From a virus, in the IMG/VR virus record IMGVR_UViG_3300042922_000982, positions 64,001 through 128,000 of that record: a stretch of DNA of 64,000 nucleotides. One strand, 5' to 3'. The notes under the pieces were generated by a model. It was not told the origin of the DNA. It saw nothing but the letters and a program-made list of their open reading frames with translations, and searched no databases. Position 1 is the stretch's first letter; each line of letters opens with the position of its first letter. The translations under genes were made by a program, and so were the position numbers. Positions 10,847 to 47,627 of this stretch are shown in pieces.

Positions 10847-11365
10847 ATGACCACCGCCAAAGCCAAGAAGAGTCAACCCCAGCCGATCGCCAGCGAGTTT
10901 AACGGCCGCGTCGCCCAGGTGCGGCCCGACCTCACCATGAACCCGTACGCGGGCGCCATTGGTCGGCTCGCGCTGCACCCCAAGCGCGGCACCATGGAGC
11001 TTCACGTCTTGCAGGGCGTGGGCTACCTGGCCATCGAGGGGCTCACCGCCGACGAGATCACCCTGCTCGAAGGCCCGACCGCCGAGGCGCTGGTGCGGGG
11101 CGAGGTGTTCAAGCGCACGCTCGCCACCGCTCGCGTGCCCGCCATCACGGCGCACCAGCCGACGGTGGCCTACTTGATGCGCGCGGCCTACATGGTGCCG
11201 CTCGACGGCGCCGACACCTTCATGATCCAGCTGGGCACCTGGTCGGATGAGCAGGCGGCCATCAAACGGGACATGGACGACGCGGGCGTGCACCCGGCGC
11301 TCTACGAGCTGATGCGCACGGCGCGCGAGATGAAGAGCCCGTACCTCTGGCTCGTGATCGCCTAG
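10847..11365 (+). CDS. hypothetical protein
   Basis: GGAGAACCGCCATG start. Confidence 0.8.
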   Translation: MTTAKAKKSQPQPIASEFNGRVAQVRPDLTMNPYAGAIGRLALHPKRGTMELHVLQGVGYLAIEGLTADEITLLEGPTAEALVRGEVFKRTLATARVPAITAHQPTVAYLMRAAYMVPLDGADTFMIQLGTWSDEQAAIKRDMDDAGVHPALYELMRTAREMKSPYLWLVIA

Positions 11366-11916: not shown

Positions 11917-12510
11917 ATGACGAACGTGATCCAGAGCAAGCAGAACCTGTGCAGCGCCCTCTCCTACGGCGTCGCCGTCGACCTGACCCGCTTGACCGGC
12001 GCCAAGTGGGCGGGCTCGGTGGACCCCAAGCTGGAGGCCACCGTACACCTGCGCCGCGAGGACGGCCTGGCGCTCACCATGGTCCTGACGGGCAACCGCT
12101 GGACGATCGGCTGGAGCGCGGGCTACGGCGTGGACAGCCTGGCCAACTGGGTGCCGACCGGCGCCTGGCCGCAGAGCATCGGGCTCGCCTTCGATCGCCC
12201 CAGCTCGCGCTTCGCGGGCGAGATCGTCCGGCGGCTCTTGCCGGGCGCGGAAGCGGCCCAGACGGCGGCCATCGCGCGCCGGGACGCGGCCGAGCGGTTT
12301 GATCAGGAAACCGGGGAGGCGATCGCCGAGGTGGCCGCCGCTCTGGGCACCACGGCGCACGGCGCGCGCGGCGACAAGGCCATGACCACGTTCGGGCGCA
12401 CCGCGATCGAGGCGGAGGCGTCCGGCTCGAATGTGACGCTGTCCATCACCAACCTGGACCCCGGCCTGGCGGCCCGCATCATCAAGCTGATCGCCAAGGC
12501 GGACCGCTAG
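11917..12510 (+). CDS. hypothetical protein
   Basis: GGAGG RBS. Confidence 0.75.
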   Translation: MTNVIQSKQNLCSALSYGVAVDLTRLTGAKWAGSVDPKLEATVHLRREDGLALTMVLTGNRWTIGWSAGYGVDSLANWVPTGAWPQSIGLAFDRPSSRFAGEIVRRLLPGAEAAQTAAIARRDAAERFDQETGEAIAEVAAALGTTAHGARGDKAMTTFGRTAIEAEASGSNVTLSITNLDPGLAARIIKLIAKADR

Positions 12511-12563: not shown

Positions 12564-12749
12564 ATGCCCGACCACGATCACGACCTGCGCGCGCGCATCA
12601 TCTACCCGCCGCTCACCCAGGAAAATATCCACGCCACGATCAACGAGCTGGAGCGTTGCCGGGCCACTGGCCCCAAGACGCAAAAGCACGTCGCCGTCGC
12701 CATCAAGCACCTGCGCAAAGCGCTGCTGTCCGCCTACAAAGGCGAGTAA
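12564..12749 (+). CDS. hypothetical protein
   Basis: GAGGAGAGCCGCCATG start. Confidence 0.7.
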   Translation: MPDHDHDLRARIIYPPLTQENIHATINELERCRATGPKTQKHVAVAIKHLRKALLSAYKGE

Positions 12750-13246: not shown

Positions 13247-13489
13247 ATGCCCCACCGTCAACCGCGCCCCAAAGCGGGCGATATCGCCGTCATCAAGCAC
13301 CCCACCGGCACCTTCCGGGGGCCGATCCAGTCGGTGTCCAACATGGGCACCGTCGAGGAGCCCAACTGGTACATCGAGTTCACCCATGACGCCCTGAGCC
13401 ACGCGCGCACGGGCGACCCCGGCTACTGGAAGCAGCGGATCGACGGCGGCACCGTCAGCTTCATTCCGCAGGAGGTGGCCGATGCGTAG
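13247..13489 (+). CDS. hypothetical protein (SH3-like)
   Basis: AAGGAG RBS. Confidence 0.7.
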   Translation: MPHRQPRPKAGDIAVIKHPTGTFRGPIQSVSNMGTVEEPNWYIEFTHDALSHARTGDPGYWKQRIDGGTVSFIPQEVADA

Positions 13490-27834: not shown

Positions 27835-28470
27835 TTAGCCCCACACGCCGTAGGTGTTCGGCTTCGGCGGCACCGGGCCGTCGGCGGCCGGGCCCGGCCG
27901 CCGGGGCTGCGTCGCCTTCGGCGCGGGCGGGGTGTAGGGCGTCACCTCGGCGTCGGAGCGAACGTAGAGCGGGTGGCGCGGGTGACCATCCTTCGTGGTG
28001 CCGAGCGCGTGGAGCTGCTTGTCCGGCACCTCGCGGGCGAGCAAGTCGAGCACCTCGCGATCGCGGCCCCGGTAGGTGCCGTCGGTGCCCCACGCGGCCA
28101 CGGGGATGTCGGCGCGGCGGACCGCCTCGACGATCGCGCGGTCGTTGGCGGCACTCGACGGCTCGTCGACGGTGCGCAGGCCCTTCGGGTCGGTCGAGCG
28201 CAGATCGAATAGGTTGACGACCTCCAGCCGCCCGGCGCCCAGGCGCTTGGCGTGCTTGACGCAGCGCGTCACGGTCGGGTCGAGCTTGAAGGCGTCCGCG
28301 ACCGAGGGATTCAGCATCAAGAACGTGGCCGTCTTGGGGTTGTCGGGATCCCACTCGCGGGTCAGGTGCTGGCGGTGCGTGCGCGCCTGGTTGAACACGG
28401 CCGAGGCGCGGCCGTGGGGGCCGTCGTCCTGGTGGTCGATCACCAATTCGGGGGCGAGGTAGTCGGGCAT
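27835..28470 (-). CDS. DUF1643 family protein
   Basis: FLMLNPSxAD..DPTxxRC..VNLFxxRSTDP..AWG..TKDGHPRHPLY motifs; AAGGAGG RBS. Confidence 0.9.
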   Translation of the reverse strand: MPDYLAPELVIDHQDDGPHGRASAVFNQARTHRQHLTREWDPDNPKTATFLMLNPSVADAFKLDPTVTRCVKHAKRLGAGRLEVVNLFDLRSTDPKGLRTVDEPSSAANDRAIVEAVRRADIPVAAWGTDGTYRGRDREVLDLLAREVPDKQLHALGTTKDGHPRHPLYVRSDAEVTPYTPPAPKATQPRRPGPAADGPVPPKPNTYGVWG

Positions 28471-28550
28471 GGCGGTCCTCCTTTCAAGGGAGCCCCATGA
28501 TAGCGCAAGACCCCCGGCTTGCCGAGGGTCTTGCTGGCCTTGACGGCCCA

Positions 28551-28640
28551 TGGCGCTGGGGCGGGACTCGAACCCGCATGCCCCGCTCGGGGGCAAGGTT
28601 GCGCACACACCCTCCGTCTACCGTCTTCCGGCACCCAGCG
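28551..28640 (-). ncRNA. tRNA-like RNA 1 (class II-like body, aberrant 9-nt anticodon loop, 3' GCCA)
   Basis: GCTGGG/CCCAGC acceptor, CCG-GAAGACGGTAGA-CGG D arm, long variable arm, GCGGG-TTCGAGT-CCCGC T arm; TGcTACACT -10 at 28646-28654. Confidence 0.8.
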
Positions 28641-28665
28641 GTTCCAGTGTAGCACGCAAACGGCA

Positions 28666-28836: not shown

Positions 28837-28867
28837 GGTGGCCAGTGTAGCATGCGATCGCCACATA

Positions 28868-28905
28868 CACCCAGGCCCCGGACCGTGGGGTCCGGGGCCT
28901 GGGTG
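28868..28905 (-). terminator. 17-bp stem hairpin ending the large ncRNA
   Basis: CACCCAGGCCCCGGACC/GGTCCGGGGCCTGGGTG. Confidence 0.7.
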
Positions 28906-29288
28906 CGTCTACCCCCTCTGAGAGGAAGGTTGAAAGGGTGGGGTTTTGGCAAGGTGATCCCCGAACTTCGGAGCAAGCTCCGGGCGCCACGCAGGGCGAC
29001 GCCACCTGCACCGTGTAAATTTCCAACTCAATCCCAACTCTTGCAAGCGGGGCGGGGTCGGCCACGGTGCGCCTCGAATCTGGTGGGGCTGCGCGGCGGG
29101 ATTGAGGCCCGCCGTCAAGCCGCTCTGATGCAAGGGAGCGACCACCATTCACGCGATTTCAGGTCGCGCTAACCGAGGGATTGTTCGCCGCTGGGCGCCC
29201 CCACTCCTTGCCGAGCCTGGGAAAGCTTGCCGGGGCTGCCTGCCGGGGCCGAAACCCCCGCCGCCGCCGCCGTGCGCTGCGAACAAGC
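28906..29288 (-). ncRNA. putative ~380-nt structured ncRNA of unknown class
   Basis: no credible ORF; nested helices, UUCG tetraloop and G-U pairs favour the minus strand; upstream TTGCCA-N18-TAATAT and downstream hairpin. Confidence 0.6.
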
Positions 29289-29337
29289 TAATATTAACCC
29301 GCCCCTAACCTGGCTGGCAAGGGGCGGGCCTGTTTTT

Positions 29338-29565
29338 TCACGAATTGATCGCCGATTCGTCGCGGGCCACCACCTGCTCGTAGACGATGTCCTCGGCTAC
29401 GAGCCAATCGTGGACCGCCTGTTCGGCGTCGTCGAGGCTTGATCTGGCGATGGTGATCTGCAAGGTGCGGGGCCTGGGAAGATCCTTCAAGTGCAGGGTG
29501 GTGGTGCGCTCCGCTGATACGAAGCGCACCCCCGACACCGTCACCTGGAAGGTCGTCTGTTCCAT
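29338..29565 (-). CDS. hypothetical protein
   Basis: follows the large gene in the same orientation. Confidence 0.55.
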   Translation of the reverse strand: MEQTTFQVTVSGVRFVSAERTTTLHLKDLPRPRTLQITIARSSLDDAEQAVHDWLVAEDIVYEQVVARDESAINS

Positions 29566-46320: not shown

Positions 46321-47505
46321 TTACTCGGCGATCGCCCCGCTCTCGTCGGTGGGGGCCGCCGCCGGGGCGTCCGGGGCGTCCGGCGCCTCGCCCTTGGCCG
46401 CGCGGGCGCGGCGCTTCTCCTCGAGGGTGAGCGGGCGCTCGTGCCCCTTGCGGATCAAGCAGGTGTAACAGGCGTTGCAGCGCTGGCGCGCCACCACCTT
46501 GTCGTGCCCGCAATTGCCGCACACCACCCCGGCCGCCGATTGGCGCGGCGCCTTCGGCTCCTTGGCCGCCTTCGGCTCCTTGGCGGGCTTGGGTTCCTTG
46601 GCCGCCTTGGGCGCCTTCTCCTTCTTGGGGGCGGGCGCGGTGCCGTCGGGCGTGGTCCAGGTGGCCTTGCCCTTGGCCGGGGCGGGCGCGGTGAAGGGCT
46701 GTTCGATGACCGGCACCATCTCGCCGGTCGCTGCGTAGGGGCCGCTGGCCTTCTTCGGCTCGGCGATCGCCGCTTCGGCCGCCTCGCGGGTGGGGTAGAA
46801 GTTGTGGGGGCCGGGCACCTCGGCGTTCACGTACAGCGGCACCACGATCGTCTGGCCGTCGACCTCGTCGTGGCAGTAGCCGATCGGCTCGCGCTCCACC
46901 ACGCCCATGTCGGTGGCGATCGCCTCAAGGGCCGGGCCCTCGGCGGTGGCCAGGTGGGCATCCTGGGCGGCCTGGTGCGACGCGATCGCCAGGTCGGCGC
47001 CCGCCTGCTCGGCCGGGGTGGGGAAGGCGTCGGCCTGCAACTCGGCCTCGGAGAGCGTGGTGTCCTCGGCGTGGGGCGGGGTCGCCATGGCCGCGAGGGC
47101 CGCCTTGTTCTTCTTGCTGCGCACGGCCACCGGCTCATCGGCCGCCGGGGCCGCCTCGGGCTCGGCGATCGCCGCCTTGGCCTTCTTGGCCTTGGGGGCC
47201 GGGGCCTCGGTGTCGGCGGGCTCGTCGGCGTCGGTGTAGGCGGGCAGGTCGAGCACGTCGGCGAGATCCGGGTGCTTCTCGGCCATGATCACGCCGTAGG
47301 CGGTCGCGTAGGTGTTGTCGATGCTGACGTTGTAGTGCGTGCGCAGGTGCTTGAAGATGCCGCGCGGGGAGAGCTTCTGGCCCTCGGAGGCGGCCTGGAT
47401 GGCGCATTGGGTGAACTGGTTGGCGACCTTGGGGTTGCGGTCGTTGTAGCGCGCCACGTAGGCGCGGGATTCCTTGGTGATGGTGATGGCGTTCTGGGTG
47501 ACCAT
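46321..47505 (-). CDS. protein with N-terminal helical domain, A/P/K-rich linker and C-terminal GATA-like Zn finger
   Basis: GGAGAACCCC RBS; CGNC..CNACY..G.ERPL. Confidence 0.75.
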   Translation of the reverse strand: MVTQNAITITKESRAYVARYNDRNPKVANQFTQCAIQAASEGQKLSPRGIFKHLRTHYNVSIDNTYATAYGVIMAEKHPDLADVLDLPAYTDADEPADTEAPAPKAKKAKAAIAEPEAAPAADEPVAVRSKKNKAALAAMATPPHAEDTTLSEAELQADAFPTPAEQAGADLAIASHQAAQDAHLATAEGPALEAIATDMGVVEREPIGYCHDEVDGQTIVVPLYVNAEVPGPHNFYPTREAAEAAIAEPKKASGPYAATGEMVPVIEQPFTAPAPAKGKATWTTPDGTAPAPKKEKAPKAAKEPKPAKEPKAAKEPKAPRQSAAGVVCGNCGHDKVVARQRCNACYTCLIRKGHERPLTLEEKRRARAAKGEAPDAPDAPAAAPTDESGAIAE

Positions 47506-47627
47506 TGACGGGGTTCTCCTCTCGGTGTATAGTGGGGCCTTGCAACCTTTCCATGGCGGAAAGGCAGCGGTTCTCCGTAGGGCCTGGGATCTTGGCGGTT
47601 CCCTTGCCCGAAGAAGATGGGTCGGTT

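Follow-up and report, generated by a model that had tools for sequence, protein, structure and literature searches.

A candidate promoter-driven non-coding RNA unit with a kept start and a freely varying body in a small clade of high-GC phages

Phage non-coding RNAs of unassigned role are already known, and what is unusual at the locus described here is the pattern of conservation. The stable RNAs C and D of phage T4 (species 1 and 2), to which no role has been assigned, are encoded in the T4 tRNA cluster, measure ~120-140 nt, carry tRNA-like ends and are processed from a tRNA precursor. The putL and putR antiterminator RNAs of phage HK022 are ~70 nt long and have a defined two-stem fold; their conserved portion follows immediately on a phage promoter, and the first tens of nucleotides hold stable stem-loops. 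GOLLD (RF01998) and ROOL (RF03087) are long non-coding RNAs of phages and prophages, often near tRNA genes and likewise of unassigned role, with blocks of conserved sequence and with helices that covary across many genomes. In addition, intergenic small RNAs of jumbo phages and generic phage non-coding RNA candidates are unannotated, come from contigs of the IMG/VR type and lie beside tRNA-like elements and terminators. A set of 10,006 candidate structured RNAs has been defined by covariation in alignable homologues (PMC10690425).

The locus analyzed here lies in a window of 64 kb (bases 64001-128000 of a 157,406-bp IMG/VR virus record rated complete by CheckV) with ~70% G+C. The gene-free stretch at its center of interest is probably a real, independent non-coding RNA unit, and a self-contained minus-strand unit running from a host-type promoter to a terminal hairpin is the overall explanation toward which we lean, if only somewhat. 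This candidate resembles GOLLD and ROOL in length and in its place near tRNA-like genes, but it has no Rfam match to them even at E <= 10 and its body is unconserved among syntenic relatives. Like T4 RNAs C and D, it is phage-encoded and neighbors phage tRNA-like genes; unlike them, it is ~380 nt long, is bounded by a promoter and a terminal hairpin of its own, and is without tRNA-like features. The likeness to the put RNAs consists of a conserved part just behind a promoter and, in the window, of strong hairpins between promoter and downstream genes; however, only ~35 nt align, and only between two or three phages, and two related phages (L003 and L136) have no downstream genes that antitermination could reach. 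Because its body is unalignable, the candidate could not enter a covariation screen such as PMC10690425. If transcribed, it would be a phage non-coding RNA gene invisible to covariation-based screens, in which selection acts on promoter, position and overall richness in hairpins instead of on a fold that can be aligned.

As shown by codon-position GC analysis, plus-strand genes occupy the window up to ~27.3-27.8 kb and minus-strand genes follow from 27.8 kb on. The genes flanking the candidate have GC3 values above 0.9, and this periodicity is gone between ~28440 and ~29340, the longest low-periodicity stretch of the 157-kb genome, which holds the 425-nt segment singled out in the initial annotation, two tRNA-like genes and three perfect hairpins. 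The description of this segment as an ORF-free gap holds up, since periodicity is absent and tblastx among relatives reveals no conserved ORF, only short, non-collinear matches on mixed strands; a coding reading of the body, with neither GC3 periodicity nor a collinear tblastx match, was ruled out. The longest ORF of the DUF1643 protein, 27835-28608 (-), extends into the 90-nt tRNA-like gene; on the evidence of GC3 periodicity and the GGAGG site, its real start is the ATG given in Table 1 and not the start of that longest ORF.

Table 1. Features of the candidate locus in the window and at the corresponding loci of related phages (positions of relatives are contig positions).
Locus	Feature	Position	Strand	Details
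Window	Sigma-SNF2 giant gene	36027-29587	-	2,146 aa; first in minus-strand order
Window	75-aa gene P0001	29565-29338	-	directly upstream of promoter; conserved marker of the locus
Window	Non-periodic gap	~29340-28440	-	between P0001 and DUF1643 gene
Window	9-bp hairpin	29297-29329		arms GCCCGCCCC / GGGGCGGGU on minus strand; wraps -35 box
Window	Sigma-70-type promoter	29320-29291	-	-35 TTGCCA 29320-29315; 18-nt spacer; -10 TAATAT 29296-29291; consensus scan
Window	Putative transcript body	28906-29284	-	ORF-free; ~380 nt; 67% G+C
Window	Terminal hairpin	28868-28884/28889-28905	-	17-18 bp; 100% complementary; CCAC loop; 3' end of unit
Window	Repeated box with extended -10 TGCTACACT	28842-28863	-	before 141-nt tRNA-like gene
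Window	Second copy of TGCTACACT box	28644-28665	-	before 90-nt tRNA-like gene
Window	DUF1643 gene	after gap	-	true start ~28470, ATG behind GGAGG site
L003	Promoter	12654-12684		TTGACG-N17-TATAGT, 4 nt after stop codon; syntenic site, spacer motif shared with window; then ~560 nt ORF-free GC-rich DNA
L003	Two strong terminal hairpins	13250-13280, 13308-13343		followed by convergent genes
L005	Promoter	11034-11062		TTGACA-N17-TAAAGT; syntenic site, spacer motif shared with window; then ~900 nt ORF-free DNA
L005	13-bp hairpin	11963-11992		followed by TGGTATGAT extended -10 and contig end
L136	Promoter			TTGACG-N18-TATGAT, 2 nt after stop; then ~470-600 nt ORF-free DNA, hairpins, convergent gene
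L135	Near-identical strain of L136			99.6% identical
L137	TTGACC-type site			contig stops after ~120 nt
L006	Different gap			four iteron-like GTCACAA copies and terminators
L007	No gap

The initial annotation had proposed a minus-strand TTGCCA-N18-TAATAT promoter, and the consensus scan finds it. Its spacer contains GGTTAGGG-N3-GGTTA, and a transcript would start near 29284. Sigma-70-like sites number only six in the whole 157-kb genome, both strands included, and two of the six fall within this gap. Overlooked in the annotation was that the -35 box lies within the 9-bp hairpin, which on the minus strand is preceded by an A-run and followed by a U-rich tail, has T6 at 29333-29338 on the plus strand, forms in both computed folds and has a loop of more than 8 nt. 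This hairpin is probably a bidirectional terminator that closes the giant-gene operon and merges with the promoter of the following unit. Its loop and 3' arm contain the -35 box and half of the spacer; the same promoter in L003 and L005 is without such a wrapping hairpin.

A search of 5.8 billion proteins yields four relatives of the giant protein (56, 52, 48 and 31% identity), and a profile of the small protein recovered the same relatives plus two further short contigs. The samples from which the relatives come are SRR20462231, SRR33230377, SRR26786776/7 and ERZ27237513. Homologues of the 75-aa protein, 35-43% identical, occur in L003, L005, L006 and L136. The order of giant gene, small gene and gap is syntenic in four independent phages, and the layout of the window recurs in L003, L005 and L136, where the small gene is followed by a near-consensus promoter, then by ORF-free GC-rich DNA (380-900 nt, a range that includes the window) and strong hairpins. 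Promoter and terminal hairpin are found in kept positions among these relatives with no ORF between them, whereas the more distant L006 and L007 are without the unit. In L006 (12925-12985), four GTCACAA(G/A) copies stand 11-14 nt apart and precede two GCAA-loop terminators; the copies resemble iterons or operator sites more than part of a long RNA. A DNA search of the phage collection for relatives gave no match, and IMG/VR protein-pattern searches gave none for P0001 or the C-terminus of the giant protein; the DUF1643 pattern led to a single, unrelated locus. Matches to the promoter motif in viral, metagenome and genome collections (5, 76 and 41, respectively) were set aside as chance hits or unrelated promoters; none of them has the neighboring proteins.

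The GGTTAGGG-N3-GGTTA spacer is common to the window, L003 and L005, occurring once in the 157-kb genome and once per locus. By blastn, the promoter segment and ~35 nt of the transcript align, with E values of 2e-4 between the window and L003 and 7e-3 between L003 and L005, and no other collinear similarity past ~+35 is found between the syntenic bodies. Since the adjacent small proteins are only 35-43% identical, this comparison shows clear purifying selection on the promoter; where the unit sits is likewise under such selection in these phages. Body length varies over more than a two-fold range (380, 560, 900 and ~470-600 nt), and RNAalifold returns no meaningful consensus structure among the counterparts; the comparison shows a body that evolves freely in sequence and length. 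At shorter range, all seven contigs of the L003 phage are identical over the parts of the gap that they hold, and L135 differs from L136 by two substitutions and a 1-nt indel, the indel lying in the body, which fits non-coding DNA. Together, these comparisons lend the putative unit modest support.

A further signal comes from hairpins in which a stem of 4 bp or more closes a GNRA, UNCG or CUUG tetraloop; such hairpins were counted on both strands and compared with 1000 dinucleotide shuffles for each sequence. Summed over the four phages, there are 19 such tetraloops on the sense strand vs 2 on the antisense strand, where ~3 are expected. L003 carries seven sense and no antisense loops (shuffle mean 0.83; 0 of 1000 shuffles reach seven), and L005 carries six and one (mean 1.22; six reached by 2 of 1000). 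The window has three sense loops, UUCG, GCAA and CUUG, and no antisense loop (mean 0.50; three reached by 11 of 1000); taken alone this signal is weak because two of the three loops are closed by U-G pairs, among them the UUCG loop, which lacks the extra-stable C-G closing pair. For these three sequences combined, 16 sense loops stand against one antisense loop (mean 2.55), and none of the 1000 shuffles reaches 16. L136, examined after the hypothesis had been formed, shows three sense loops and one antisense loop (mean 0.72; 36 of 1000 reach three). Special tetraloops occur at a background of ~1 per kb on each strand, whether in the genome, the giant gene or the 21 other low-periodicity gaps, and hairpins with other tetraloops are equally frequent on both strands. 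Enrichment on the presumed transcribed strand is shown in the relatives and, more weakly, in the window; the excess favors transcription of the strand downstream of the promoter together with selection for stable local hairpins.

The individual pairings proposed for the body were recovered. The terminal hairpin at 28868-28905 has 17-nt arms of perfect complementarity, the pairing 29181-29191/29276-29286 is present, the junction at 29081-29147 appears as a three-way junction in both the MFE and the centroid fold, and the remaining closed domains fold as described once cut out of the full sequence. The broader statement that the region is highly structured does not survive comparison with dinucleotide shuffles, whose energies it equals: z is -0.44 for 28906-29330(-) and +1.07 for 28906-29286(-), compared with +0.04 for the plus strand, -1.83 for L003 and +0.98 for L005. 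At 67-70% G+C, shuffled sequences fold equally well, so the case for exceptional structure fails. The cut-out domains give z values of -0.6, -2.3, -3.2 and -0.8, which are biased because the domain ends were chosen for complementarity. Nor do G-U pairs favor the minus strand, as had been thought, since the antisense fold (-167.9 kcal/mol) is slightly more stable than the sense fold (-164.1 kcal/mol). Tandem repeats of the kind found in type III toxin-antitoxin RNAs or CRISPR-like arrays were not seen, no repeat family exceeding two copies in the window, L003 or L005, and a search for antisense targets in the phage genome returned only (CGG)n matches, no better than shuffled controls. An attP reading of the segment was ruled out, there being neither a tyrosine nor a serine recombinase in the genome.

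At the gathering score, Rfam 15 yields 0 matches in the 64-kb window and none in L003, L005, L006 or L007. The initial annotation had recognized no known family, and in agreement with this GOLLD, ROOL, OLE, tmRNA, RNase P, 6S and SRP are all unmatched; raiA and HEARO likewise have no match at the gathering threshold. At E <= 10, the window and the gaps of the relatives give only chance hairpin-type matches to miRNA and sRNA models, and no tRNA-clan match falls inside 28906-29330. Neither ARAGORN nor Rfam finds a tmRNA, the sole tRNA-like result of ARAGORN in the window is 28552-28640, and in the hairpin list T-arm loops are confined to the two downstream tRNA-like genes. Each of these genes is preceded at 6-8 nt by a copy of the 22-nt TGCTACACT box (the copies being 82% identical), which in turn lies just after a perfect hairpin, and a further start-signal candidate, TCGGCA-N17-TATCAT, is present at 28525-28497. 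With such boxes ahead of them, the tRNA-like genes are probably separate units, each started by a signal of its own. In L005, too, a hairpin followed by TGGTATGAT is seen at 11963-12010, before the contig end. It had been suggested that the RNA acts with the tRNA mimics, an idea that the relatives do not support: ARAGORN detects no tRNA in the L003 and L005 loci, Rfam none in their gaps, and no T-arm hairpin is seen in the L003, L005 and L136 transcripts.

The readings were ranked as follows: a trans-acting, fast-evolving decoy or regulator, then a functionless transcribed spacer, then a conserved fold hidden by divergence, and last a transcription-activated DNA element. According to the first of these, the near-consensus sigma-70/sigma-A promoter immediately after the 75-aa gene would start an untranslated RNA near 29284, which would run ~380 nt to the 28905-28868 hairpin and end or be cut there; this hairpin probably serves as a terminator, as a processing site or to stabilize the 3' end. 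Host polymerase would make the RNA without dependence on the late operon. An RNA that is long and goes untranslated has to evade Rho and RNases, and the hairpins, one of which lies near the 5' end (within the first 50 nt) in each phage, may mainly confer resistance to both, by which the RNA could accumulate. Hairpins protect without constraining sequence, which fits a conserved promoter joined to a free body. Action in trans would then proceed through short or lineage-specific features, the RNA serving as decoy, sponge or regulator, and not through one conserved three-dimensional fold; this trans-acting role is offered tentatively. More speculative still is the wider picture, in which a small clade of uncultured high-GC sigma-SNF2 phages might carry a dedicated 0.4-0.9 kb hairpin-rich RNA gene, its GGTTAGGG-N3-GGTTA promoter and position kept and its body rapidly turned over, as would fit an arms race (for instance, if the RNA acts as decoy against a host nuclease or against RNA-sensing defense); alternatively, the promoter might be read by the phage's own upstream sigma module. 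A strong conserved promoter beside a phage sigma-factor gene offers a concrete substrate on which to ask whether such a module is active.

The best-surviving alternative, which we nevertheless regard as unlikely, is that the stretch is a spacer with no function of its own. The promoter would then serve downstream cargo, namely the tRNA-like genes and the DUF1643 gene in the window and the next unit in L005, the 380 nt would amount to transcribed leader sequence or drifting junk, and the hairpins would be ordinary terminators or insulators at a module border. A body conserved neither in sequence nor in length and folding at chance level speaks for this account, as do the co-oriented genes that follow the unit in the window; the 3' hairpin is without a U-tract, so read-through is possible. 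However, in L003 and L136 no co-oriented gene lies past the promoter, where there is only non-coding DNA with two strong terminator hairpins and then convergent genes, and a transcript made there cannot serve as an mRNA leader. The downstream units of the window, moreover, have start signals of their own in the TGCTACACT boxes and the TCGGCA-N17-TATCAT site, and the surplus of special tetraloops on the sense strand is not accounted for by drift.

The proposal of a new large RNA class, with a complex conserved fold diverged past alignment and working with the tRNA mimics, is improbable. It draws on the failure of all known families to match, on the tetraloop excess and on two resemblances between bodies: in both the window and L003, the extreme 5' end of the transcript carries an 11-nt arm that pairs 84-100 nt downstream to enclose a domain of 106-122 nt, and a 6-bp hairpin with a UGG(G)AAU(C) loop is common to L005 and L136, its stem differing by one compensatory change. 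These coincidences were found by eye, without controls, in sequence of 70% G+C, and no hairpin-loop motif is universal to all four RNAs, the UGG(G)AAU(C) loop being confined to L005 and L136. Against a shared fold stand lengths of 380-900 nt, the absence of consensus structure and collinear similarity, a proposed 5' closing helix that the full-length MFE leaves unused, and relatives without tRNA-like genes. With counterparts that cannot be aligned, a more than two-fold spread in length and folding energies at chance level, the large structured class put forward in the initial annotation is not established. Least probable of all, and by a judgment that leaves it little room, is an element acting at the level of DNA or transcription, either an origin activated by transcription in which an R-loop primes from the G-cluster-rich start or a boundary element for which the act of transcription and not the RNA matters: a conserved promoter with a freely varying body, G clusters that follow closely on the start ((GGC)4GGGGG in the window, with comparable runs in L003, L005 and L136), a turn of the window's cumulative GC skew near 27-28 kb and the four GTCACAA iterons in the syntenic gap of L006 speak for it, but the window, L003 and L005 contain no iterons, AT-rich unwinding element or direct-repeat family, the transcript has no net excess of G over C (127/127 in the window, C > G in L003), the skew turn coincides with and is explained by the switch in gene orientation, and strand-specific RNA tetraloops are not predicted.

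Some smaller features accompany the locus. In the non-coding body of L003 (12928-13110), GGTTCCCG occurs three times and a fourth site reads TGTTCCCG; hairpins of the G(CUUG)C type are found there three times and UUCG hairpins twice, one of the latter C-G closed. Related GGTTCC motifs are also seen in L005 and L136; these recurrences may be due to chance. The N-terminal motif of P0001 (~30 residues, GVRFVSAxRT-like) recurs 3-22 times in proteins of 925-2969 aa (P0013, P0015-P0018), and the 75-aa gene may be a free-standing copy of this repeat module. The best sigma-70-like match of the genome, TTGACG-N17-TATAGT at 47505-47534 (+) with 10/12 positions, runs opposite to a minus-strand gene over its start and ribosome-binding site, which makes it a possible antisense promoter.
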